From an uncultured Desulfovibrionaceae bacterium (GTDB lineage: Bacteria; Bacillota; Dethiobacteria; DTU022; UBA8154): a stretch of 64,000 bases of DNA. Within the stretch, counting starts at the first letter, position 1, and each line of letters opens with the position of its first letter. Position numbers and translations under genes: made by a program. A model generated the notes under the pieces. The model saw only the letters and a program-made list of their open reading frames with translations, had not been told where the DNA came from and made no database searches. The stretch spans positions 1,954 through 65,953 of the forward strand of contig CAZRVU010000001.1 of the NCBI GenBank assembly GCA_964603615.1, in the 5' to 3' direction. Below, piece by piece: positions 8,137-31,742 of this stretch.

Positions 8137-8688
8137 ATGGGAACGGGAAGCCGCATCATACTGGCTATCCTGGGAGTTTGCGGTCTTTTGTGCGGTATTT
8201 TTCTGATACTGGTCACGCTAGGGCTTATTGTTCCGGTTGGGTTTCCTTTTACCGACCGGCTTGCCGGTGATTTAAGTATTACTCTTTTTGGCGTGCTGAT
8301 TTTTGTTATTGGGATCATCTTGCTGTTTTTTTCTGCAAGAAGCAGCAAGAAGGAGGGAGGGGGCGGTGCCGGTGCTACTATCGTCAGCTTTACAGAAACC
8401 GGTGAGATACGCATCTCTTTCCGGGCGGTTGAAAATATGGTTCTAAATGCCTCCCGTAAGGTTAAGGGCGTTCGTGAAATCAATACACGCCTTAATTTTA
8501 CCGAGCAGGGTCTCGTTATCTACCTGCGCATTAAGGTCATACCCGATCTGCCTATTCCTGCCTTGGTAAATGAGCTACAGAATACGGTCCGTGAGTATGT
8601 GCAGGAGATTAGCGGGACCAATGTAGCCGAAGTTAAGGTTTTGGTGGAAAATATCGCCCAGGAAACAATTGAAAAAAAAGTTCGTTGA
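8137..8688 (+). CDS. amaP: Alkaline shock response membrane anchor protein AmaP
   Basis: N-terminal TM helices followed by an Asp23-like domain; conserved asp23-amaP-DUF2273 gene order. Confidence 0.7.
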   Translation: MGTGSRIILAILGVCGLLCGIFLILVTLGLIVPVGFPFTDRLAGDLSITLFGVLIFVIGIILLFFSARSSKKEGGGGAGATIVSFTETGEIRISFRAVENMVLNASRKVKGVREINTRLNFTEQGLVIYLRIKVIPDLPIPALVNELQNTVREYVQEISGTNVAEVKVLVENIAQETIEKKVR

Positions 8689-8929
8689 GGGTGTGAGCAC
8701 TTTGGGTGAGCATAATTATTTAAGGTTTATTAGCGAAAACCCCGGTAAAATATTGGGCGGCCTGCTGGGTTTGCTAGTGGCTGTTATCATAGTATTTTTT
8801 GGTTTTTGGCGGGGTCTTTTTATTCTTCTCTGTGTTTCTGTTGGCATCTACCTGGGTGCCCGGGCAGAAAAAGATGAAGGGTTAAGTGTCCTACTGGAAA
8901 GATTCCGTTTTGGGCGGGACCGTTTTTAA
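8669..8929 (+). CDS. DUF2273 small membrane protein
   Basis: Two-TM small protein immediately after amaP; the true start is probably the internal M that removes the overlap. Confidence 0.55.
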   Translation: MKKKFVEGVSTLGEHNYLRFISENPGKILGGLLGLLVAVIIVFFGFWRGLFILLCVSVGIYLGARAEKDEGLSVLLERFRFGRDRF

Positions 8930-9050
8930 AATTTTACCGGCAACGGTTTTATCGTACATGAAAATTTGATGCTTATTTAAATAAGATAGATTCCGTGGTT
9001 TTAAGGGATGCTGCAGAACAAACTGGCGGTTAGGGAAAGGGGTACAGGCT

Positions 9051-9467
9051 TTGAAAAGAAAATTGCCCCGCGAGTATGCTTTCAAAATACTATTTATGAT
9101 CGATGTCGGCGGGAACGATGCTGAAGCAGCGCTCCATCATCTGCTTGATGACACCGCTTTTTCTGTCAATGAAAAATCTTTTTGTACAGCGTTGGTGGAG
9201 GGTGTCTTGGCAAAAAAAAATGAACTGGATCAAATATTGTCCCGCCACCTCGTTAAATGGCAATTAAGCCGCCTGGCAGCAACGGTCCGCAATATTTTAC
9301 GTCTTGCTCTCTATGAGTTGCTTTATGCCCGGGATATTCCCCCGGTTGTTTCCATCAATGAGGCCATAGAGCTGGCTAAAGCCTACCAGGATGAAGAAGC
9401 AGCACGTTTTGTGAACGGTATCCTCGACGCTATACATAAAGAGCATCAAGAAACTATTACGAACTGA
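9051..9467 (+). CDS. nusB: Transcription antitermination factor NusB
   Basis: 138 aa; NusB fold motifs (AFKILFMIDVGG..., RNILRLALYELLY). Confidence 0.85.
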   Translation: MKRKLPREYAFKILFMIDVGGNDAEAALHHLLDDTAFSVNEKSFCTALVEGVLAKKNELDQILSRHLVKWQLSRLAATVRNILRLALYELLYARDIPPVVSINEAIELAKAYQDEEAARFVNGILDAIHKEHQETITN

Positions 9468-9544
9468 ACCCCTGCTTGCTAGACGCTAGCGTTGAATTTT
9501 ACTGTGCCTGAATATTCTGTATTGATAAACATTGTTTTGATTTT

Positions 9545-9566
9545 GTCTTTCGAAAGGACTTTTTTG
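9545..9566 (+). terminator. Terminator candidate (palindrome GTCTTTCGAAAGGAC + T6)
   Basis: Near-perfect palindrome followed by TTTTTT downstream of nusB. Confidence 0.45.
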
Positions 9567-9628
9567 TTATTATGGCGAACTTAGATCCTTAAAAAAGGAC
9601 ATAAAAGTAAAGGAGGTTTAGGTAATTT

Positions 9629-10477
9629 ATGTTCAAAATAGTTAAAAAAAGAGTATTAGCAGATGTATCCAAATTAATGGAAGTGGAAGCGCCGCTCGTG
9701 GCACGTAAGGCGCAACCCGGACAGTTTATTATTTTGCGTGTCAGCGATAACGGGGAAAGAATTCCTTTAACTATCGCTGACAGCGACAAAGAAAAAGGGA
9801 CAATCACCATTATTTACCAGGAGGTTGGTAAAACAACAAAGGAACTGGGGGCCCTTGAAGAGGGGGATTTTTTAAATGACTTTGTTGGGCCGCTGGGTCG
9901 GGCCATGGAGTTGCCGACCTCGGGACGAGTTATTGCTGTGGGCGGCGGGGTAGGTATTGCCCCGATCTACCCGAAGGTGAAGGCCTTTCATGAGGCAGGT
10001 ATGGAAGTTATCTCTATCATTGGGGCGCGGACAGCCGATCTCCTCATTTTAGAAGATGAAATGAGGGCTGTTAGCAAGGAGCTTCACATTTGTACTGATG
10101 ACGGGACAAAAGGGCATCACGGTTTTGTGTCCGATATCCTGCAGGGCATGCTCGATGATAAAAGCAAAAAGATAGATGAAATTATTGCTGTAGGTCCGCT
10201 GCCGATGATGCGTGTCATTGCCAATCAAACGAAACCCTATGGTATTAAAACAGTGGTTAGCTTAAACCCCATTATGGTTGATGGGACGGGGATGTGCGGG
10301 TGTTGCCGCGTGACTGTTGGCGGGGAAACAAAGTTTACTTGTGTCGACGGCCCTGTTTTTGATGCACACCAGGTTGATTTTGCGGAGCTGACCCGTCGTA
10401 GTCAGATGTATTTGCCGGAAGAAAAAATAGCCTTGGAAAAATATGAGAAGGAAAGCGGATCTGGAGGTGGGCGCTAG
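9629..10477 (+). CDS. nfnA: NfnA/SudB-type FAD/NAD(P)-binding [2Fe-2S] oxidoreductase subunit
   Basis: PyrK/FNR-like fold with C-terminal cysteine cluster GMCGCCRV...FTCVDGP; immediately upstream of a GltD-like partner. Confidence 0.7.
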   Translation: MFKIVKKRVLADVSKLMEVEAPLVARKAQPGQFIILRVSDNGERIPLTIADSDKEKGTITIIYQEVGKTTKELGALEEGDFLNDFVGPLGRAMELPTSGRVIAVGGGVGIAPIYPKVKAFHEAGMEVISIIGARTADLLILEDEMRAVSKELHICTDDGTKGHHGFVSDILQGMLDDKSKKIDEIIAVGPLPMMRVIANQTKPYGIKTVVSLNPIMVDGTGMCGCCRVTVGGETKFTCVDGPVFDAHQVDFAELTRRSQMYLPEEKIALEKYEKESGSGGGR

Positions 10478-10479
10478 TT

Positions 10480-11901
10480 ATGTTGGAAAAAGATGAGATC
10501 AAAAAGCTGCGCAAATTAAAAGAAAAGCATCCGATGCCGGAACAGACTCCGCAGGAGCGCATCAAAAATTTTAACGAGGTGCCCTTTGGTTATGATGCCG
10601 AAACGGCAATGAGAGAGGCTGCCCGTTGCCTGCAGTGCAAGGATCCCAAATGTGTAGAGGGTTGCCCGGTAGAGGTGGATATTCCTGCTTTTATCCAATT
10701 AATTGTTGAGGGAAAATTTGATGAAGGTATTAAAAAGCTGAAAGAAAAGAACAGCCTGCCGGCGGTTTGCGGGCGCGTTTGCCCTCAGGAGAGCCAGTGT
10801 GAAGCACTATGCTTGCGCGGCAAAAAAGGTGAACCGGTGGCTATTGGGCGCCTGGAACGTTTTCTTGCCGACTATGAACTGGCCAAGGGAGTGGAAACAC
10901 CTCCTAGGCCGGAACAGACTGGAAAGCGCGTTGCTGTCGTCGGTGCTGGCCCGGCCGGGTTGACTGCTGCCGGTGATCTGGCCAAAATGGGGCATGAGGT
11001 TGTTCTTTTTGAAGCATTTCATGCCACGGGGGGAGTTCTCCGCTATGGGATCCCTGAGTTTCGTTTGCCCAAGGAAAAAGTTTTGCAACGCGAGGTAGAT
11101 TATATTGCCAGCCTGGGCGTTGAGATTAAAACAAACGTGGTTGTGGGGAAAACTATAACGATCGATGAACTTTTTAATGAAGAAGGTTTTCAGGCTATCT
11201 TCATCGGTACGGGGGCGGGGTTGCCCCAATTTCTCCATATCCCGGGGGAAAACTTGAACGGTGTTTTTTCAGCAAATGAGTTTTTGACGAGAGCCAACCT
11301 GATGAAAGCCTATCTGTTCCCTAAGCATGATACGCCAATCAAACTGGGTAGAAAAGTTGCTGTGGTCGGTGCGGGGAACGTGGCGATGGATAGTGCCCGT
11401 ACATCGCTGCGCCTGGGTGCCGAAGAGGTTCATATTGTTTATCGTCGTTCGGATAAAGAGATGCCGGCCCGTGCCGAAGAAATTGAACACGCTAAGGAAG
11501 AAGGCGTTGTCTTTAATTTGCTGACCAATCCTGTAAGGATCATCGAGGATGAAAATGGTTGGGTTAAAGGGATGGAATGTATTAAGATGGAGCTGGGCGA
11601 ACCGGACGATTCCGGACGGGCGCGTCCCATTCCCATCGAGGGTTCCGAGTTTGTTTTTGATGTGGATACTATCGTTATTGCAATAGGTCAAAGCCCCAAC
11701 CCGCTTATTCCACAGACTACGCCTGATTTGGAGATTGGACGCCGGGGAACAATTACGGCGAACGAAGAAGGGGCAACCTCCCGCGCAGGAATATATGCCG
11801 GAGGGGACATCGTTACAGGGGCTGCCACGGTTATTTTAGCCATGGGTGCCGGTAAGGTGGCTGCACGGGCAATAGATAGCTATCTAAAAACATTATCTTA
11901 A
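10480..11901 (+). CDS. nfnB: NfnB/GltD-type glutamate synthase small-subunit-like NADPH oxidoreductase
   Basis: Cys motifs CLQCKDPKC...CP, CGRVCPQE; two dinucleotide-binding sites VAVVGAGPAGL and VAVVGAGNVAMD. Confidence 0.75.
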   Translation: MLEKDEIKKLRKLKEKHPMPEQTPQERIKNFNEVPFGYDAETAMREAARCLQCKDPKCVEGCPVEVDIPAFIQLIVEGKFDEGIKKLKEKNSLPAVCGRVCPQESQCEALCLRGKKGEPVAIGRLERFLADYELAKGVETPPRPEQTGKRVAVVGAGPAGLTAAGDLAKMGHEVVLFEAFHATGGVLRYGIPEFRLPKEKVLQREVDYIASLGVEIKTNVVVGKTITIDELFNEEGFQAIFIGTGAGLPQFLHIPGENLNGVFSANEFLTRANLMKAYLFPKHDTPIKLGRKVAVVGAGNVAMDSARTSLRLGAEEVHIVYRRSDKEMPARAEEIEHAKEEGVVFNLLTNPVRIIEDENGWVKGMECIKMELGEPDDSGRARPIPIEGSEFVFDVDTIVIAIGQSPNPLIPQTTPDLEIGRRGTITANEEGATSRAGIYAGGDIVTGAATVILAMGAGKVAARAIDSYLKTLS

Positions 11902-11926
11902 TATTTAATGAGGAGGTTTTACTGGC

Positions 11927-12808
11927 ATGGCAGCAAAAATTATTTCTGGAAATGAAGTGGCCAAAGAGATCCGGGCCGAACTTAAGGAAAAGGTAGCAGG
12001 ATTAAAAGAGAAAGGTATTGTACCCGGTCTTGGTGTAGTGCTGGTGGGCGAAGATCCCGCCTCTGTTTCTTATGTTACCAGTAAGGCCAAGGGTTGTCAG
12101 GAAATTGGGATGTATGAGGAAACGATCCGTCTCCCGGCGGATGTGCCTGAAGAAGAGGTGCTCAAAGTTATCGATGGTTTAAACAAGGATCCAAAATTTA
12201 GCGGAATTTTGGTGCAGCTTCCTCTGCCGGATCATATCAGTGTCGATAAAATTATCGGCTATATCTCCCCGGAGAAAGACGTCGATGGTTTTCACCCGGT
12301 CAACGTGGGCAAACTACTGCGGGGCGAGCCCTGCCCGCTGCCTTGTACCCCCCACGGTGTCCAGCAGCTTTTATTCCGTTCCGGCAATGATCCGGCGGGT
12401 AAACACGTCGTGGTTTGTGGCCGCAGCAATATCGTAGGCAAACCCTTGGCAGCGATTTTAATGCAGAAGAAAAAAGGGGCCAATGCTGTGGTAACTGTTG
12501 TGCATACGGGCGCCAAGGATATTTCTTATTTTACAAAGCAGGCTGATATTCTCATTGCTGCCATGGGCAGGCCCCAGGCGATTACTGCCGATATGGTGAA
12601 GGAAGGTACAGTTGTAATTGATGTGGGTGTCAACAGGATTCCGGATGCTTCCAAAAAGAGTGGTTTCCGCCTGGCGGGCGATGTGGATTTTGAACCCGTT
12701 GCTGCTAAAGCGTCATTTATTACACCAGTTCCCGGCGGTGTAGGGCCCATGACCGTAACCATGCTTCTTTATAACACTGTCGAAGCGGCAGCTACGCTCA
12801 ATCAGTAA
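11927..12808 (+). CDS. folD: Bifunctional 5,10-methylene-tetrahydrofolate dehydrogenase/cyclohydrolase FolD (canonical copy)
   Basis: Canonical motifs SVSYVTSK (Tyr/Lys), DVDGFHP, GRSNIVGKP, PVPGGVGPMTV. Confidence 0.9.
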   Translation: MAAKIISGNEVAKEIRAELKEKVAGLKEKGIVPGLGVVLVGEDPASVSYVTSKAKGCQEIGMYEETIRLPADVPEEEVLKVIDGLNKDPKFSGILVQLPLPDHISVDKIIGYISPEKDVDGFHPVNVGKLLRGEPCPLPCTPHGVQQLLFRSGNDPAGKHVVVCGRSNIVGKPLAAILMQKKKGANAVVTVVHTGAKDISYFTKQADILIAAMGRPQAITADMVKEGTVVIDVGVNRIPDASKKSGFRLAGDVDFEPVAAKASFITPVPGGVGPMTVTMLLYNTVEAAATLNQ

Positions 12809-12824
12809 TTCAAGGCGCAGATCT

Positions 12825-13679
12825 ATGCCTGCAAAAATATTTAGCGAGGAAGAGGTGGGGGATAAAGTCCAACTCGAAATCCTGGCGGAATTTGGGAACC
12901 TGTGTAAAAAAACAAAAAATGTTCCCGGTTTGGCCGTGATCGTTGTTGGTGAAGACCCCGCCTCTCTTTCTGCTGCTCAGAAAAAAGAAGAAGTGGGTAA
13001 GGAACTGGGTTTTCGTGTTGGGTTACATCGTTTGCCTGCAACTGTTTCTACAGAGGAAGTTTGTAAGGTAATCCGCCGTCTGAACAGTGAAGAACAGCTC
13101 CATGGTTTGTTTTGTCAACTGCCTTTGCCCCGTCATTTGCCGGAAAAAGACATTATAGCAGCCATCGATCCCGGGAAGGACGTTGGCGGTACGCACCCGC
13201 TGAATGCGGGGAGGCTTTGGGGCGGGATGGATTGCTACCTGCCTTGCAGTGCTGATGGTTGTTTGCAGGCTCTGAACTTGACCGGACAATCGCTTCAGGG
13301 TAAAACAGCGGTACTGCTTGGACACAGCAATATTGTTACTAAACCGCTTGCTCTTGTGTTGTTACAAAAAAATGCTACGGTTACTGTATGTCCAACCATA
13401 ACCGGGGAGCTGCCGGGGATCTGCCGCAGTGCTGATATTCTCATTACAGAGATGGGAAAGCCCGGGCTAGTCAAGGGCGATTGGGTCAAGCCCGGAGCAG
13501 TGGTAATTGGTGCTGCTGCAACCCGGTCAGCGGAAGTTTCGATGGGAGATGTGGTCTCCGGGGAGGTTGTTCAGGTTGCGGGGTGGTTTTTTCATTTACC
13601 GGCCAGGGAAACAGGTGTGCTCATGCCGCTCATGTTGATGAAAAACACGCTGAAAGCATTCCAGAAAATAATAATTTAG
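12825..13679 (+). CDS. FolD-like paralog 2 (divergent; Tyr of YxxxK replaced, DVDGF->DVGGT, C-terminal PVPGGVGP motif lost)
   Basis: Clear global alignment to the upstream FolD but with substitutions at conserved positions (SLSAAQKK; DVGGTHP; GHSNIVTKP; C-terminus HLPARETGV). Confidence 0.7.
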   Translation: MPAKIFSEEEVGDKVQLEILAEFGNLCKKTKNVPGLAVIVVGEDPASLSAAQKKEEVGKELGFRVGLHRLPATVSTEEVCKVIRRLNSEEQLHGLFCQLPLPRHLPEKDIIAAIDPGKDVGGTHPLNAGRLWGGMDCYLPCSADGCLQALNLTGQSLQGKTAVLLGHSNIVTKPLALVLLQKNATVTVCPTITGELPGICRSADILITEMGKPGLVKGDWVKPGAVVIGAAATRSAEVSMGDVVSGEVVQVAGWFFHLPARETGVLMPLMLMKNTLKAFQKIII

Positions 13680-13813
13680 TAGTTGCTTCTGGGAAAGGTC
13701 AAAAAGTCTGCGTCGCGGATGTAGGTCTTTGAACTTTTCCCTTCTTTATTCTAGTTGCAGTCAACAAGATGCTAGTTATAGCAAACAATGGATTGAGCAA
13801 CAGGAGGAAATAA

Positions 13814-14653
13814 ATGAGTGCAAAAACGATTAACGGGGAACAGATTGCCAGAGAAGTGCGTGAGCAACTAAAATCGGCTACGGTTACTTTAAAGAAAAAG
13901 GGTGTAATGCCCGGCCTGGCCATTGTGGTACTCGCCAGCCCTGTAGCCCGCATTCATGTTGCCCGCTTAAAAGAACGAGCTTGCCGGCAACTCGGTATTT
14001 ATTGCCGGGCCTGTTACTTGCCGGAGAATACTACAGAGGATGAACTGGAAAAACTGCTAGCCCGTCTGAATACCGCACCGGAGATCCATGGAATAAACAT
14101 TCACCCCCTGCCGCCGTCTTTTAACCATATGTGTTTTTCTCAATTGGTAGCCCCGCACAAGGATATTGAAGGCCTTCATTTTTTGAATATGGGTGATTTT
14201 TTTAAGGGCGAATACCTGCTGACTCCCTATGTGGCCAAGGGTATTATGAAGCTAATCGGTGCAACTGGAGAAAATTTGGCGGGGAAAAGAGCTGTAATTG
14301 TCGGGCGCAGCCAGCTTGTTGGAAAACCGGTAGCCTTTTTACTGATGGAAAAAGGCGTAGCTGTAAGTATCTGCCATACCCGGACAGTGGATTTGGCTTC
14401 TTTTACGAGGGAGGCGGATCTACTCATCGTTGCTGCTGGCAAACCTCGTTTGATCACTGCCGGGATGGTCAAAGCAGGGGCGATTGTCATCGATGTTGGT
14501 GACAATCTTATCGGTACGCACCTTACGGGCGATGTGGATTACTGGAATGTGAAAAAAATTGCCGGTTGGATAACACCTGTACCGGGAGGTGCCGGCCCGG
14601 TAACGATCACCATGTTGTTTGAAAATCTACTGGAGGCGGCACAGGCTCAATGA
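13814..14653 (+). CDS. FolD-like paralog 3 (divergent; Tyr replaced, DIEGLHF, SQLVGKP, C-terminal PVPGGAGPVT retained)
   Basis: Alignable to FolD along its full length; catalytic Lys retained (HVARLKERAC) but Tyr and NADP-pocket residues altered. Confidence 0.7.
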   Translation: MSAKTINGEQIAREVREQLKSATVTLKKKGVMPGLAIVVLASPVARIHVARLKERACRQLGIYCRACYLPENTTEDELEKLLARLNTAPEIHGINIHPLPPSFNHMCFSQLVAPHKDIEGLHFLNMGDFFKGEYLLTPYVAKGIMKLIGATGENLAGKRAVIVGRSQLVGKPVAFLLMEKGVAVSICHTRTVDLASFTREADLLIVAAGKPRLITAGMVKAGAIVIDVGDNLIGTHLTGDVDYWNVKKIAGWITPVPGGAGPVTITMLFENLLEAAQAQ

Positions 14654-15864
14654 AAGAACAAAGCGTTTATACAGTATCCCAAGTAAACTTTTACCTAAAA
14701 GGCCTGCTGTTGCAGGATAATTTACTTCAGTCTATCTCCATCCTTGGCGAAATTTCCAACTATAAGCTCCACAAACCCTCGGGTCATATCTATTTTACCC
14801 TGAAAGACAAAGATAGTATTATCCGTTGTGTTTTTTTCTTGAGCAAAAACAGGAGGCTGCTATTTGTGCCGGCAGATGGGATGAAAGTCATTGCCAGCGG
14901 CAGTATCTCCCTTTATGATAAGAGTGGTTATTACCAGCTTTACGTTGAAGATTTAAAACCGGAAGGAATTGGTGCTCTTTACCTGGCCTTCGAGCAACTG
15001 AAGGCCAAACTCAAAAGCGAAGGGCTTTTTGATGCCGCCAGGAAGAAGCCTTTGCCGCGCCTGCCGGGTAAGGTGGGGTTGGTTACTTCGCCGACGGGGG
15101 CAGCTATCCAGGATTTTTTAACAACTTTGGAAAGAAGGTTTCCTTGTGTTAGCGTCCTGCTTTATCCCGTGGCCGTTCAGGGCGGGGAGGCTGCCGGTCA
15201 GATAATTAATGCCCTTCAGACGCTGGATAGCCTGGGTGATATCGATGTTTTGGTGCTAACCAGGGGTGGCGGCTCTCTCGAGGAGTTATGGCCTTTTAAC
15301 GACGAAAGGCTGGCCCGGGTTATTGCAGAGTTAAATACACCCGTCATTAGTGCAGTAGGGCACGAAACAGATTTTACCATTGCCGACTTTGTTGCAGATC
15401 TTAGAGCTTCAACGCCTACGGCTGCTGCAGAGCTGATGGCCCCGGAACAAAAGGAACTCTTGCGATATTTAAGTATGCAAGAACAACGTCTGCTGAATAT
15501 CTGGCATGGTTTTAAACGAGAAAAAAGAATGATTTTAAAGACATTTTCCGGCGCTGTTTCGCTAAAGTACCCCCGTGAAAAAATTAACCAAGGTTATCAG
15601 CGGGTTGATGAGTTGGGACAACGGCTTGCACAAAACATACAATATCATTTAAAATTCAAAAAGACTGCCCTTAGCCACATCGAGGAAAAAATACAAGCTT
15701 TAAATCCCAGGCATATTATGGAGCGGGGGTTTGCGTTGATCAGCGACGGGCAGAATATGCCGGTTAGCAGTATCAACTCTCTGCAAGAGGGCCAGGATAT
15801 ACACGTTACCTTCCATGACGGGGAGGCCGGTTGTCAGGTGCAAAAGGTAAAAAGGAAAAATTAG
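14650..15864 (+). CDS. xseA: Exodeoxyribonuclease VII large subunit
   Basis: 404 aa; OB-fold N-terminus and XseA core; conserved folD-xseA-xseB order. Confidence 0.9.
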   Translation: MKEQSVYTVSQVNFYLKGLLLQDNLLQSISILGEISNYKLHKPSGHIYFTLKDKDSIIRCVFFLSKNRRLLFVPADGMKVIASGSISLYDKSGYYQLYVEDLKPEGIGALYLAFEQLKAKLKSEGLFDAARKKPLPRLPGKVGLVTSPTGAAIQDFLTTLERRFPCVSVLLYPVAVQGGEAAGQIINALQTLDSLGDIDVLVLTRGGGSLEELWPFNDERLARVIAELNTPVISAVGHETDFTIADFVADLRASTPTAAAELMAPEQKELLRYLSMQEQRLLNIWHGFKREKRMILKTFSGAVSLKYPREKINQGYQRVDELGQRLAQNIQYHLKFKKTALSHIEEKIQALNPRHIMERGFALISDGQNMPVSSINSLQEGQDIHVTFHDGEAGCQVQKVKRKN

Positions 15865-15889
15865 ACAAGCAACTGAAAGAGGGTTTGAG

Positions 15890-16126
15890 GTGTCTCCAAA
15901 AGAAAAAAAGAAATTAAATTTTGAAGATGCTTTACAAAAACTGGAATCAATTGTAGAGCAAATGGAAAAAGAGGAACTTCCCCTGGAAAAATTGCTGCAG
16001 CATTTGGAAAAAGGGATGGGGCTGATACAACATTGCCGCCAGATGCTCTCTGAAGCCGAATTTAAGGTAGAAGCGCTGCTGCAAAACAACGAACAGGTTG
16101 CCCGGGACGATCTTGAAGAAGAATAA
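15890..16126 (+). CDS. xseB: Exodeoxyribonuclease VII small subunit
   Basis: 78-aa coiled-coil protein directly after xseA. Confidence 0.85.
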   Translation: MSPKEKKKLNFEDALQKLESIVEQMEKEELPLEKLLQHLEKGMGLIQHCRQMLSEAEFKVEALLQNNEQVARDDLEEE

Positions 16127-16167
16127 CGCCCAAAGGCGCTTTTTCCATGCGTTTATTAAAACAGGTA

Positions 16168-16357
16168 GTTGTGGATTAGCGACCTGTGAAGCGAGGTAAA
16201 GAGTTCACGGTTTAGCGCAGGCCTTGAGGCGTTCCTGCCGACAGGACGTTGGCAGCCGGCCATGTGCCCACGGAGGGGCACTTGGCCGGGCAGGACGACT
16301 GGGGCCGGAGCTAAACCGTAGAAACTCTCCGAGCTGAACTTGGAGCTAATCCACAAC
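16168..16357 (+). ncRNA. Candidate structured ncRNA: ~190-nt long imperfect hairpin (6S-RNA-like architecture) closed by a perfect 13-bp stem GTTGTGGATTAGC/GCTAATCCACAAC
   Basis: Arms pair imperfectly over their whole length with internal loops and an apical GTGCCC-ACGGAG-GGGCAC hairpin; GC-rich unlike typical intergenic DNA; sits between xseB and ispA. Confidence 0.3.
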
Positions 16358-16380
16358 CCACGCCACCTGGGGGGGTTACA

Positions 16381-17298
16381 ATGAACTTTGAACATTTAAT
16401 GGAAACTAGAAAAGCTTTACTCGATAGGGCTATGGATTATTTCCTGCCCGCTGAAAAAGAATACCCCCGGGAGATTCACCGGGCGATGCGCTATAGTGTT
16501 TTTGCCGGCGGCAAGCGCCTCAGGCCGCTTTTGGTTTTATTTTCAGCGGAACTATTTACCGCTGATTGGCAAAGGGCGCTTCCGGCGGCTTGTGCGCTGG
16601 AATTAATACATACCTATTCCCTCATTCATGATGATTTGCCGGCAATGGACGATGATGACTACAGAAGGGGGCGCCTTACTTCTCATAAGGTATTTGGAGA
16701 AGGCGCAGCCATCTTGGCCGGGGATGCCTTGTTAACCCTGGCTTTTGAAATATTAGCCGGCTGCTGGGAACAGAAAAACGAATTGTATCATGCCTATTGG
16801 GCAAATGTCCGGCCGGAGGTTAAGCTCAAAGCTATTTGGGAATTGGCTCGCGCGGCAGGAGTTGGAGGGATGGTCGGAGGACAGGCAGTAGATCTTGCTT
16901 CGGAAGGAAAAGCGGTTGACGCAGGCACTATGGAATATATTGATACTCATAAAACGGGGGCGCTGCTTTTGGCTTCTGTACGTTTAGGGGCTCTTTTGGC
17001 TGGTGCTGAGGCTAATGAGCTGGACAGGCTCTCTGCTTTTGCCCGCTTGTTGGGAAGGGCTTTTCAGATTGTCGATGATCTTCTGGATATAGAAGGTGAC
17101 GAACAAAAAATGGGGAAGGCCAAAGGGAAAGATGTGCAAAGAGAAAAAGCCAACCTGGTTTCTTTTTATGGTGTGGATGCTGCCAAAAAAAACAGGGATC
17201 AATTATTTACGCAAGCCATGCAGGAGCTGTCTTTTTTTGGCGAAGAAGCTTTCCCCCTGCGGGAGATTACCCGCCTGGCCTTTTACCGGGATTATTAA
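16381..17298 (+). CDS. ispA: Farnesyl diphosphate synthase (geranyltranstransferase)
   Basis: Two aspartate-rich motifs LIHDDLPAMDDDDYRRG and FQIVDDLLD. Confidence 0.9.
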   Translation: MNFEHLMETRKALLDRAMDYFLPAEKEYPREIHRAMRYSVFAGGKRLRPLLVLFSAELFTADWQRALPAACALELIHTYSLIHDDLPAMDDDDYRRGRLTSHKVFGEGAAILAGDALLTLAFEILAGCWEQKNELYHAYWANVRPEVKLKAIWELARAAGVGGMVGGQAVDLASEGKAVDAGTMEYIDTHKTGALLLASVRLGALLAGAEANELDRLSAFARLLGRAFQIVDDLLDIEGDEQKMGKAKGKDVQREKANLVSFYGVDAAKKNRDQLFTQAMQELSFFGEEAFPLREITRLAFYRDY

Positions 17299-26624: not shown

Positions 26625-26641
26625 ACATGCATAATGCATGT
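26625..26641 (+). promoter_or_regulatory. 17-bp palindrome ACATGCAT-A-ATGCATGT overlapping the first in-frame ATG of the steA-like ORF
   Basis: Perfect 8-bp arms around a central A; candidate operator; suggests the real start codon lies downstream. Confidence 0.3.
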
Positions 26642-27876
26642 TCCTTTTTTTTATCATAAAGTTGTTCATAATGATCCATACTAAAAATGCAAGAGGAATG
26701 AAAAATAATGTGGTAGGCCCAAAAGTGTGTTTTTATAAAGAAAGCGGGGCTTTTGAAACGAAACGAACGATGCAGGGTGTGCTTAAAAAGGATCGTAAGA
26801 CAAAAATGCTTTGCAAAAGGTTGCAACCAGGAGATATTGCCCTCATTGCCCATCGCGATCTCGATGCTTTGGCCGCCCAGGAGCTTGTTGAAAAAGAAAT
26901 TAAAGCGGTAATAAATGCCCATGATATTTTTTCCGGGGAGTACCCTGCGCAAGGGGCAAAATATTTGTTAAACAAAGGGATCTTTGTTTTAGACAATGTT
27001 GGAGAGAATATCTTTTCACGTGTAACGGAAGGAGAAACAATAGTTATTAACGGGGATTCTGTTTATTATCGCAGGCAAAAATTGGGGCAGGGCAGGATCC
27101 TCCAGAAAGAAATACTACAACAAAAATCGGCCTTAGCTGAAAAAAATCTTAACCGACAATTAAACTTATTTGTCCAAAATACTTTGGACTATCTGCATCA
27201 AGAAAAAAATATAATTTTAGACGATTTTTTCATGCCTGAATTAAAAACAAAATTGGCGGGAAGGCATGTCCTCATTGTAATTCGAGGTAAAAATTATAAA
27301 AAAGATTTACAAATGATCCGTTCATATATCAAGGATGTTAAGCCAGTGCTGATTGGAGTCGATGGCGGGGGTGACGCCCTTTGTGCTCTGGGCCTGAGAC
27401 CCCACCTCATTATTGGTGATATGGATAGCGTGGAAGATGCTACTTTAAAAAAGGCCGGTGAGATAGTGGTTCATGCCTACCCTAACGGGTTGGCCCCGGG
27501 AATGGCACGCATTTCCCGGTTGGGGTTAAAGGCTAAAGTAATAGCCATGACCGGCACAAGCGAGGATTTGGCTTTGATGCTGGCTTATGAAAAAAAGGCC
27601 GAATTAATTGTAGCCGTTGGTTCGCATTCTCATATGCTCGATTTTTTGGAAAAAGGTCGTAAAGGAATGGCCTCTACTTTCCTGGTGCGGCTAAAGGTCG
27701 GGCCTAAACTTGTCGACGCCCGCGGTCTAGCCCATTTATATCAAGGGGGTGCCAAGTGGCAATATCTATCAGCTTTACTGGTTGCTGCTCTTTTTCCGAT
27801 TGTTCTTCTGGCCGCCTTTTCACCTTTGGTGCGTCATTTTTTTTATCTCCTGGGCTGGAAGTTCGGCTTGCATTAA
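26638..27876 (+). CDS. SteA-like putative cytokinetic ring protein (start uncertain)
   Basis: ~400-aa soluble protein with a C-terminal TM anchor, followed by a DUF3186 'copper transporter'-family gene, mirroring the actinobacterial steA-steB pair. Confidence 0.5.
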   Translation: MFLFFIIKLFIMIHTKNARGMKNNVVGPKVCFYKESGAFETKRTMQGVLKKDRKTKMLCKRLQPGDIALIAHRDLDALAAQELVEKEIKAVINAHDIFSGEYPAQGAKYLLNKGIFVLDNVGENIFSRVTEGETIVINGDSVYYRRQKLGQGRILQKEILQQKSALAEKNLNRQLNLFVQNTLDYLHQEKNIILDDFFMPELKTKLAGRHVLIVIRGKNYKKDLQMIRSYIKDVKPVLIGVDGGGDALCALGLRPHLIIGDMDSVEDATLKKAGEIVVHAYPNGLAPGMARISRLGLKAKVIAMTGTSEDLALMLAYEKKAELIVAVGSHSHMLDFLEKGRKGMASTFLVRLKVGPKLVDARGLAHLYQGGAKWQYLSALLVAALFPIVLLAAFSPLVRHFFYLLGWKFGLH

Positions 27877-29799: not shown

Positions 29800-30630
29800 A
29801 TGCAAGTAAGCCAAATTATAAGGTGTGCTGCATTTTGTTTACCGGTTTGTACCGTTTATTTATTGGCTCCTTATCATTTTCGTCTGCAGAAATATAAAAA
29901 AATGACTGTGATGAATTTTCAAGGTATAAAGGTTGTTACAGCAGGCGGCCTGCTTCTTTTTGTTGCTTTAATGGCCTTACACTTTTTTAATTATTTATTC
30001 CTGCAGGAAGGCTTTCTAGTAGCCTGGCCGCTGCTTTTATATTGGGGGGGCCTTACTTTTTTGGGTGTAATCGATGATCTGCAGGGTGAAAAAAATTGTA
30101 AAGGTTTTCGTGGACACCTCCTTTGGTGTTGGCAGGGAAAAGGTATTTCCACCGGATTTTATAAGGCAGCCGGCGGTCTGATATGCGGTGTTTTAGTTTC
30201 TGCCTGGCTTGGAGTGGGAACATGGCCGGAGTGGTTTTGCAAGGGAGCTTTTCTAGCTCTTTTTTCCAACTTTTTTAATCTTTTGGATACGCGTCCAGCC
30301 CGTGCAATAAAACTTTTTTTCTTCTTATCTTTGGCCTTTATGTTGGTTTACCGGGATTATATTTTGCCGTTATTCTCTTTTTGGGGTGCTCTTTATATTT
30401 ATCTATTCTGGGAATTAGAACAGAAAATTATGCTAGGTGATGCCGGGGCCTATCTTTTGGGGGGATTTTTAGGTTTTTATCTTATTCTTTGCTTATCCCT
30501 GAAAGGGTTGTTAATTATAATGGCAGCACTGCTTATTTTACATTATTTAGGTGAAAAATTTTCGTGGAGTGAATTATTAGAAAATAAAAAGTCGCTTTTG
30601 TTCGGGCATTTTCCAGGAAGGAGAAATTAA
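29800..30630 (+). CDS. MraY/WecA-like (GT4 polyprenyl-phosphate sugar-1-P transferase family) short membrane protein
   Basis: Polytopic; VIDDLQGEK and MLGDAGAYLLG resemble MraY/WecA motifs, but the protein is only 276 aa. Confidence 0.45.
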   Translation: MQVSQIIRCAAFCLPVCTVYLLAPYHFRLQKYKKMTVMNFQGIKVVTAGGLLLFVALMALHFFNYLFLQEGFLVAWPLLLYWGGLTFLGVIDDLQGEKNCKGFRGHLLWCWQGKGISTGFYKAAGGLICGVLVSAWLGVGTWPEWFCKGAFLALFSNFFNLLDTRPARAIKLFFFLSLAFMLVYRDYILPLFSFWGALYIYLFWELEQKIMLGDAGAYLLGGFLGFYLILCLSLKGLLIIMAALLILHYLGEKFSWSELLENKKSLLFGHFPGRRN

Positions 30631-30632
30631 AA

Positions 30633-31742
30633 GTGCTTAGTACCGCTAACGGGGTTGTGGAAAAAATTATCTGGGCCAGGCCAGGTTTGCAATGTTTAGA
30701 AGTTAAGCTCAACGGGGAAATAGAAAGGGCCCTAAATTATACGAGCCTTACCGCTACAGCTTTACCAGGGCACCGGGTGGTGTTGAACACAACGGCAGTA
30801 AGGTTGGGCTTAGGGAGCGGCGGATATCACTTTGTTGCAGCCAATCATGATGTTTCCTGTCTATCTTTTGTCCCCCGGGGGCATATTATCAAATTGCGCT
30901 ATACGCCTTTGCAGCTCAAAGTTGAAACTTTTGAGGAAACTATAAGCCGTGGTAGTCCCGCTAATTTATCCTGGAGAAAATACCGGGGGCTGAAAAATGT
31001 TCCGGTGGTCATCGGTGAACTGCACAGTATGGTTGCCCCTTTCGTTTTAACTCTTAAAAAAATAAATCCATCCAGAAAAATAGTTTACATCATGACTGAC
31101 AGCGCTGCTTTACCTCTTTCTTTTAGTAATGTGGTAGATCGCCTTAGGAGTGAACGATTGTTGGAGGGAACGGTGACCTGCGGCCATGCCTTTGGCGGAG
31201 ATTTGGAAACGGTTAATATTTATACGGCTTTAATTGCAGCCAGGGAAGCTTTTAATGCTGATGTTATCCTGCTTGTTCCGGGGCCCGGCGTTGTTGGGAC
31301 CTCTACACGCTATGGTTATAGCGGTATCGAACAAGGGGAACACGTTGACCGGGTACATAAGTTTCAAGGGCTGCCGGTAGTAATCCCCCGTATCAGTTTT
31401 GCTGAAAAAAGAAGACGCCATTATGGTTTGAGCCATCACACGCGGACGGCCCTGGGTGAAATTGCTAACAATAATGTGTATTTGCCATTGCCGCGGCTTT
31501 CCAAGGAAAAGATGCTTTTTCTTTACCGGCAGTTGAAGATTTCCGGTTTGCCCTTCAAGCATAAAATAGTCATAATCAGTCAATTTCCTAAACTTGACCG
31601 GTTGTTGGAAAATGATTACAATTTGGAATCGATGGGACGTGGCCTTGCTGATGATCCGGCTTTTTTTGCGTCTGTTGCTGCCACGGCTTCTTTTACAGAA
31701 AAAATACTAGGCAAAATAGAGGCGGGTGAGTATGTAACTTAA
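30633..31742 (+). CDS. DUF3866-like hypothetical protein
   Basis: 369-aa soluble protein with no recognised catalytic motif; apparently co-oriented with the two transferase genes (2-nt gap). Confidence 0.35.
   Translation: MLSTANGVVEKIIWARPGLQCLEVKLNGEIERALNYTSLTATALPGHRVVLNTTAVRLGLGSGGYHFVAANHDVSCLSFVPRGHIIKLRYTPLQLKVETFEETISRGSPANLSWRKYRGLKNVPVVIGELHSMVAPFVLTLKKINPSRKIVYIMTDSAALPLSFSNVVDRLRSERLLEGTVTCGHAFGGDLETVNIYTALIAAREAFNADVILLVPGPGVVGTSTRYGYSGIEQGEHVDRVHKFQGLPVVIPRISFAEKRRRHYGLSHHTRTALGEIANNNVYLPLPRLSKEKMLFLYRQLKISGLPFKHKIVIISQFPKLDRLLENDYNLESMGRGLADDPAFFASVAATASFTEKILGKIEAGEYVT

Follow-up and report, generated by a model that had tools for sequence, protein, structure and literature searches.

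Closest described systems

In Moorella thermoacetica, the genes for the electron-bifurcating transhydrogenase NfnAB lie immediately upstream of the gene for an NADPH-dependent methylene-tetrahydrofolate (methylene-H4F) dehydrogenase, an arrangement that has been read as supplying NADPH for the Wood-Ljungdahl pathway (PMC6405883). We analyzed a 64,000-nt stretch of DNA, hereafter the window, from an uncultured bacterium of the Dethiobacteria by GTDB lineage (assembly GCA_964603615.1, contig CAZRVU010000001.1, positions 1,954 to 65,953), which likewise has nfnAB just upstream of a folD gene, here termed folD1. While Moorella thus offers a precedent for nfnAB next to folD, the window differs in that two more FolD paralogs (FolD2 and FolD3) follow, and its relatives differ further in that Nfn is swapped for a Stn-type enzyme. 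Our reading of the sequences, held with moderate confidence, is that three folD genes of unlike history make up a mosaic locus: a FolD1-NfnAB module, a near-dead FolD2, and a FolD3 with a distinct job.

Bifunctional FolD enzymes such as E. coli FolD and the dehydrogenase/cyclohydrolase domain of human MTHFD1 share their two-domain fold with all three window proteins, and FolD1 has the full list of substrate and NADP residues. By contrast, FolD2 lacks Tyr50, Asp121, the Arg and His of the NADP triad, and the PGGVGP loop, while FolD3 has Val/His for Tyr50, His for Gln98, Glu for Asp121, and a deletion of Leu99 (residue positions follow E. coli FolD throughout). Loss of one or both activities after duplication has been described for other FolD-fold paralogs, namely the N-terminal domain of MTHFD1L and the yeast NAD-dependent MTD1 (PDB 1edz), although in unrelated lineages and events (PMC11064299). 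The 1edz structure was a weak match for all three window proteins. To our knowledge, the Lys54/His98/Glu121 (K/H/E) signature of FolD3 is found neither in that domain of MTHFD1L nor in MTD1.

For E. coli FolD, single substitutions give a scale for such changes: the dehydrogenase activity left is 8% in Q98H, 19% in K54N, and 21% in G8S, whereas cyclohydrolase activity is down to about 1% in Q98H and G8S and is absent from K54N (PMC5688156). The first two are known as carolacton-resistance mutants (PDB 5o2a). FolD3 shares the Gln98-to-His change, two relatives (loci L025 and L035) have lost Lys54 in their counterpart of FolD2, and FolD2 of the window is, like G8S, substituted at Gly8. However, Q98H and K54N are laboratory mutations that carry a fitness cost, whereas FolD3 represents a clade found in nature, in which about 15 changes of the pocket are coordinated and conserved.

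Three FolD-family proteins, one of them canonical

The three genes are intact, consecutive open reading frames (ORFs) on the + strand at 11927..12808 (folD1, 293 aa), 12825..13679 (folD2, 284 aa), and 13814..14653 (folD3, 279 aa). Their coordinates are exactly those of the first-pass annotation, which had described three full-length FolD homologs at 11927-14653 with a canonical first copy; the ORFs, Pfam domains, PDB matches, and FolD1 residues all agree with that description. Both FolD domains (PF00763 and PF02882) were found in every protein above gathering thresholds (E 2e-21 to 8e-64; 214 and 139 bits in FolD1), and solved FolD structures matched all three over their full length (E 1e-52 to 1e-85). 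AlphaFold2 (AF2) models kept the FolD fold, with a predicted local distance difference test (pLDDT) score of 94.4 for FolD3 and 91.8 for FolD2, and a Foldseek search with the FolD3 model returned FolD structures only (template modeling score, TM, 0.92-0.95), among them the Q98H structure 5o2a. All three proteins missed the NCBIfam FolD equivalog/subfamily cut-offs: the best models scored 367 against a cut-off of 530 for FolD1 (closest miss 328.2 against 333), 239.9 against 396 for FolD2, and 274.5 against 421 for FolD3. Because these models are narrow and lineage-specific, the miss says little for FolD1.

According to a published survey, most bacteria have a single FolD copy (PMC11064299). As a background of our own, we reused the yield of a metagenome scan made with the FolD3-clade alignment: each of the 80 FolD loci drawn (80/80) held one FolD within ±6 kb, and 78/80 showed the canonical residue signature. 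The three neighboring FolD-family genes are confirmed as real and their arrangement as unusual. The claim that each has its own ribosome-binding site stands for FolD1 (GGAGG) and FolD3 (AGGAGG), both with strong sites, while FolD2 has a weak AAGG only.

FolD1 has the complete set of substrate and catalytic residues, Tyr50, Lys54, Gln98, Leu99, Asp121, Gly261, and Gly264 (human Y52/K56/Q100/L101/D125/G273/G276), which are 100% conserved in its clade; the roles of substrate- and NADP-site residues were taken from a Leishmania/human comparison (PMC3368264). Its signature comprises S47/Y50/K54/Q98/D121 together with GRSNIVGKP and PVPGGVGP, and all listed NADP residues are present, with the triad that contacts the NADP 2′-phosphate kept as R/H/T. 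Copies in relatives are 92-96% identical, and the ratio of nonsynonymous to synonymous substitution rates (dN/dS) is 0.02, estimated as for all genes below by the Nei-Gojobori method against relatives at dS 0.6-1.1. From these features, nfnA-nfnB-folD1 would form a redox and one-carbon (C1) module, in which FolD1 would serve as an active, bifunctional methylene-H4F dehydrogenase/cyclohydrolase that uses NADP(H). The neighboring NfnAB, predicted to be electron-bifurcating, would keep NADP(H) in balance with NADH and ferredoxin, a role that has been proposed in Moorella.

The FolD1 clade also holds FolDs of other taxa that are linked to thyX and fhs. In another lineage (L033/L034, 6165-9722), the gene order thyX-folD-fhs includes a FolD that shares about 79% identity with FolD1, so this highly conserved FolD type is elsewhere linked to formate-H4F ligase. 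Separately, a European Nucleotide Archive (ENA) scaffold of the window's strain (L024, 3039-3905) carries a FolD1 copy with about 19 nonsynonymous and 7 synonymous differences from the window amid identical or nearly identical neighbors; the gene called there encodes 288 aa without a Pfam hit, and the differences are probably a local assembly or frameshift artifact.

Separate histories of the three genes

Tandem triplication of folD, as the first-pass annotation had put it, is an interpretation rather than an observation, because pairwise identities among the copies reach only 42%, 42%, and 33%. A neighbor-joining tree of 76 FolDs (276 columns, 100 bootstraps) places them in three well-separated clades, with support of 100 for FolD3, 98-100 for FolD2 together with the still-canonical FolDs of relatives among which it nests (FolD2′), and 100 for FolD1. 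The FolD1 clade belongs to a different, long-type subfamily and shows a weak grouping with FolDs of this type from Syntrophorhabdus, Treponema, and Melioribacter. The tree, in which the deep nodes are poorly resolved, speaks against a recent triplication.

The interval between nusB and xseA was found in six states among the window and its relatives. The shortest holds FolD2′ and FolD3 only (L027); in the second, a StnABC-like module precedes FolD2′ and FolD3 (L025, L031), and in the third, FolD1 stands between the Stn module and FolD2′-FolD3 (L035). NfnAB takes the place of Stn before FolD1, FolD2′, and FolD3 in the fourth (L029), FolD2 is degenerate in the fifth (the window, L001, L002, and L036, with the short contig L037 showing the FolD2-FolD3 part only), and FolD2 is gone in the sixth, which consists of NfnAB, FolD1, and FolD3 (L017-L022). 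FolD3 is present in all six states, each time directly upstream of xseA, with which it overlaps end to start in the window and most relatives, and in every state another FolD lies directly upstream of FolD3. As a side observation, a TsaD-family gene (PF00814) lies between nusB and the FolD genes at L027 (5875-6798) and L031 (705-1652); the window has none.

A reading of FolD2 and FolD3 as pseudogenes was rejected: both reading frames stay open in every relative found, at a dS of about 1, with dN/dS of 0.18-0.29 for FolD2 and 0.10 for FolD3. For comparison, dN/dS was 0.03-0.055 for NfnAB (0.035 for NfnB), 0.10-0.11 for XseA, and 0.105 for NusB. FolD3 is thus under ordinary purifying selection, equal to that on neighboring housekeeping genes, and FolD2 under relaxed but real constraint. 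The catalytic residues of both proteins still differ from the canonical set after profile alignment, as the first-pass annotation had supposed.

The degenerate copy, FolD2

FolD2 lacks several residues of the substrate and catalytic site of a bifunctional enzyme, with G8 changed to E, Y50 to A, D121 to G, and Gly261 to Ala. Further changes convert GRS to GHS, His190 to Pro, Ala209 to Glu, and PGGVGP to PARETGV. The NADP triad is destroyed (His/Pro/Thr in the window), and Gly166 and Gly172 are lost in the clade. The window copy retains Lys54 and Gln98, whereas the clade members P0005 and P0008 have Glu and Arg at these positions, and several other motif positions vary even among FolD2 sequences. 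Given these residues, FolD2 is probably noncatalytic.

Wherever FolD2 was found degenerate or missing, FolD1 was present at the same locus; L017-L022 have no FolD2 at all. An intermediate condition is seen in FolD2′ of L025 (7077-7934) and L035 (7898-8758) and in protein P0016, which have Ile or Ala at Lys54 and are otherwise canonical; by analogy with K54N, such proteins should be without cyclohydrolase activity. In the history we propose, FolD2 would be the lineage's older Firmicute-type FolD, made redundant once FolD1 was present, which then lost folate-site and NADP-site residues and, weakly translated and fast-evolving, became dead or nearly so, while sister lineages deleted it; a residual, probably structural, role may keep its ORF open in the window.

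The conserved but remodeled copy, FolD3

The FolD3 clade combines a rebuilt folate pocket with a kept NADP site. Across about 60 clusters, from which the clade's residue states were drawn, Lys54, His98 (with deletion of Leu99), and Glu121 are present at 100%, and a neighboring Arg and His are conserved. Position 50 has no Tyr in the clade (Val/His instead); the register there differs between MAFFT and HMMER alignments, neither of which places an aromatic residue at this position. Additional switches affect position 65, 96-97 (LV to NI), 123 (F to L), 125 (P to F), 131 (L to F), and 141-143 (CTP to FVA). FolD3 keeps Lys54, Gly261, and Gly264, but not the full substrate and catalytic set of a bifunctional enzyme. 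Also kept are the GxSxxxGxP loop, as GRSxLVGKP, together with CHS and PVPGGVGP, and the triad Arg167/His190/Ser191, at frequencies of 1.00/1.00/0.90 in the clade, corresponds to the residues R173/H196/S197 that bind the NADP 2′-phosphate in the human enzyme (PMC3368264). The polar, invariant pocket and the intact NADP site suggest that FolD3 is functional; as a best guess from these residues, it would most likely be a dehydrogenase linked to NADP, with poor cyclohydrolase activity, an altered substrate, or both.

Among 1.84 billion library representatives, a single one (372 bits) stood for the FolD3 clade, and the next matches were canonical FolDs at 259 bits or less. A metagenome scan with the FolD3-clade alignment, which used generic patterns such as TPVPGGVGP, added no FolD3 loci and returned canonical FolDs of at most 45% identity. 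The clade was seen only in the Dethiobacteria-like relatives found in this analysis, whose taxonomy rests on two metagenome-assembled genomes labeled 'Dethiobacteria bacterium' and 'Bacillota bacterium'. In the literature searched, we found no account of the FolD1/FolD2/FolD3 paralog set or of the K/H/E signature, and both the FolD3 clade and the series of FolD2 decay appear to be undescribed so far. On a separate matter, the FolD homologs P0369, P0375, P0376, P0393, and P0398 of other lineages have the non-canonical signatures SYKEE, SYVMD, GYQQE, SYLLE, and AYQQE, respectively, at positions 47/50/54/98/121, so divergent FolD paralogs occur in other lineages too.

The 134-nt spacer between folD2 and folD3 contains a terminator-like element on the + strand (13691..13752), in which a long, imperfect hairpin spans 13691-13741 and a U-rich tract takes up 13742-13752. 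The minimum free energy from RNAfold was -39.8 kcal/mol for the 140 nt at 13677-13816 (z = -2.9 against mononucleotide shuffles), and a hairpin with a U-tract, different in sequence, is found in the equivalent spacer, after FolD2 or FolD1 and before FolD3, of L036, L037, L001, L002, L029, L031, and L017. A simple promoter/terminator scan of the spacer did not report the hairpin and gave nothing convincing, and an Rfam search of 8500-16500 at E <= 1 found neither a riboswitch nor a leader RNA; a match to a long noncoding RNA (lncRNA) was put down to chance. The element looks like an intrinsic terminator or attenuator; with a conserved hairpin before FolD3, the three folD genes may therefore not form one operon, and the arrangement suggests that an nfnAB-folD1-folD2 transcript ends at the hairpin while folD3 is transcribed with xseAB. 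FolD3 would occupy the ancestral position of folD, with its translation coupled to that of xseA, as a neofunctionalized paralog whose role could be replaced neither by FolD1 nor by the canonical forerunner of FolD2.

Several observations weigh against the mosaic reading or its parts. The deep branches of the tree are poorly resolved (support 25-43), with neighbor-joining placement of the FolD3 and FolD1 clades among FolDs at 25-69, so that we infer, rather than observe, an origin of FolD3 by tandem duplication from FolD2′ and of FolD1 by transfer. In FolD3, Thr142, an NADP-site residue (human Thr148), is changed to Val and Cys141 to Phe; both changes could impair hydride transfer, and 'dehydrogenase' is therefore not assured. 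At L025, neither FolD has an intact cyclohydrolase site, because the upstream copy is without Lys54 and the FolD3 pocket is changed; loci of this type are awkward for the view that FolD3 lacks cyclohydrolase activity, unless another gene elsewhere supplies it. As the dN/dS of FolD2 is well below 1, this gene is not merely decaying. Finally, no good promoter was found after the hairpin, the conservation of which was judged by folding and by eye, without a covariation statistic.

Alternative explanations

A bolder form of the FolD3 proposal is that the clade represents a new activity in the FolD fold, an oxidoreductase dependent on NADP(H) that would use a non-standard substrate or catalyze a different reaction on methylene/methenyl-H4F. 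Reasoning from the pocket residues, we regard this as possible but distinctly improbable; Dethiobacteria-like bacteria would, equally tentatively, carry such an activity as a fixed trait, next to a canonical FolD and a transhydrogenase of the Nfn or Stn type.

Somewhat less probable still is that FolD3 is a noncatalytic, NADP(H)-binding regulatory or structural partner, for example in a heterodimer with FolD1 that senses NADPH/NADP. FolD enzymes are dimers, four of the seven substrate-site residues of the human enzyme (4/7) are changed in FolD3, the NADP-site Thr142 has become Val, and the part of the NADP site that binds the adenine and 2′-phosphate is its best-kept portion. However, a dead site should look like that of FolD2, with variable decay, whereas the replacement residues of FolD3 are polar, invariant in the clade, and typical of a working site, and its dN/dS equals that of neighboring housekeeping genes.

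We consider it unlikely that the labor is divided so that FolD3 is the cyclohydrolase, with Lys54 kept and His98 standing in for Gln98, and the upstream copy the dehydrogenase. Lys54, which is essential for cyclohydrolase activity (PMC5688156), is indeed invariant in FolD3, and the FolD2′ proteins with Ile/Ala at this position (L025, L035, P0016) would, by analogy with K54N, be spared as dehydrogenases. Against this, the E. coli Q98H enzyme retains only about 1% of cyclohydrolase activity, FolD1 of the window is fully bifunctional by its residues, so that a separate cyclohydrolase is unneeded, and the strictly kept NADP 2′-phosphate triad is not obviously needed by a hydrolase.

A lineage-specific tandem triplication, yielding three active isoforms set apart chiefly by their preference for NAD or NADP, is largely refuted by the phylogeny and very unlikely. 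Three full-length FolD-fold proteins do lie in tandem beside a transhydrogenase, and FolD2 and FolD3 are under purifying selection; but identities of 33-42% among the three and separate clades with different histories speak against it, and the active site of FolD2 is variable within its own clade. The split by cofactor was rejected on the 2′-phosphate triad, since FolD1 and FolD3 both keep Arg/His/Ser(Thr) and FolD2 has had it destroyed. What survives of the first-pass proposal of specialized, mono-functional, or noncatalytic isoforms is that, judging from residues, FolD3 may fit a specialized, possibly mono-functional enzyme and FolD2 a noncatalytic partner or relic.

Least likely of all, and highly improbable, is that FolD3 serves as an insensitive back-up FolD and so shields C1 metabolism from natural, carolacton-type inhibitors of the active site or from antifolates: carolacton binding needs Y50, K54, and G261 and Q98H makes E. 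coli resistant (PMC5688156), and FolD3 has His98, is without Tyr50, and matches 5o2a in structure, but many of its pocket changes are unrelated to carolacton contacts, no genes for inhibitor biosynthesis or resistance lie nearby in an annotated window of housekeeping and sporulation genes, and FolD3 is fixed in a housekeeping operon in every relative found, unlike an accessory gene.

The transhydrogenase and the surrounding genes

Placement directly downstream of NfnAB, as claimed in the first-pass annotation, was borne out, with NCBIfam cut-offs passed by both subunits. The small, FAD/NAD-binding 2Fe-2S subunit NfnA (9629..10477, + strand, strong AGGAGG ribosome-binding site) scored 423.8 bits against NF004862 (cut-off 220), with best PDB matches to P. 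furiosus NfnI beta (5jca_S, 332 bits) and to 4ylf_A (257 bits). The large NADPH/FAD subunit NfnB (10480..11901, + strand; Fer4_20 and Pyr_redox_2) scored 590 bits against TIGR01316 (cut-off 471.75), with best matches to 4ylf_B (604 bits) and P. furiosus NfnI alpha (5jca_L, 535 bits); 4YLF is NfnAB of T. maritima (PMC6405883). By these scores, the gene pair directly upstream of folD1 is assigned as a true NfnAB.

In three relatives, the same slot holds a StnABC-like module (L025, 930-7025; L031, 1893-7978; L035, 865-6955) made up of NuoE-like and NuoF-like proteins and a 1240-aa protein with GltD and NuoG/FdhF-like parts, the large subunit of which scored 1031 bits against StnC (8oh5_C). The module, a putative transhydrogenase in these loci and absent from the window, fits the published architecture of StnABC, the Sporomusa-type Nfn (PDB 8OH5). 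Because two different transhydrogenases, both predicted to be NADPH-linked and bifurcating, occupy one slot, a functional tie to the adjacent FolD is indicated; with the Moorella nfn-folD precedent (PMC6405883), the Nfn-FolD link suggested at first pass is credible. Its further suggestion of a Wood-Ljungdahl context drew no support from the window: in a Pfam annotation of twenty genes (20540-43368), no such genes and no C1 genes to add to the folD trio were found, and the context derives from papers on metagenome-assembled genomes in which the pathway, or syntrophic acetate oxidation in biogas reactors, has been proposed for some Dethiobacteria.

The order nusB-folD-xseAB-ispA-dxs is a classical Firmicute block, and in the window extra genes are inserted into it. 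The full order runs from the spoIIIA genes through asp23, nusB, nfnA, nfnB, the three folD genes, xseA, xseB, ispA, and dxs to a rrmJ-like gene, nadK, recN, spoIVB, and spo0A. On the + strand, nusB (9051..9467; PF01029 at the equivalent position of the identical contigs L023 and L024) forms the left anchor of the nusB-(folD)-xseA-xseB-ispA-dxs block. To the right follow xseA, encoding the large subunit of exonuclease VII (14650..15864, + strand; PF13742, PF01336, and PF02601 at the equivalent position in L023), the first 4 nt of which coincide with the end of folD3, and xseB for the 78-aa small subunit (15890..16126, + strand; PF02609 likewise in L023). The twenty genes annotated between 20540 and 43368 are of sporulation and housekeeping type (rrmJ-like, nadK, recN, spoIVB, spo0A, the sigF operon, and spoVAD). 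Two sizeable ORFs at 26638-27876 (412 aa) and 29800-30630 (276 aa) had no Pfam match at E <= 1e-6, and a DUF3866 protein is encoded at 30633-31742.

Implications

Automatic annotation would name all three proteins 'bifunctional FolD', a name that fits FolD1 alone. If the activity of FolD3 is distinct, metabolic reconstructions of Dethiobacteria-type organisms would miscount their C1 enzymes. For the study of how a redundant enzyme decays, FolD2 offers a natural series that begins with canonical copies and passes through copies without Lys54 and fully degenerate ones to outright deletion. The exchange of Nfn and Stn upstream of the FolD genes lends independent genomic support to a tight NADP(H) coupling of electron bifurcation with methylene-H4F oxidation/reduction.

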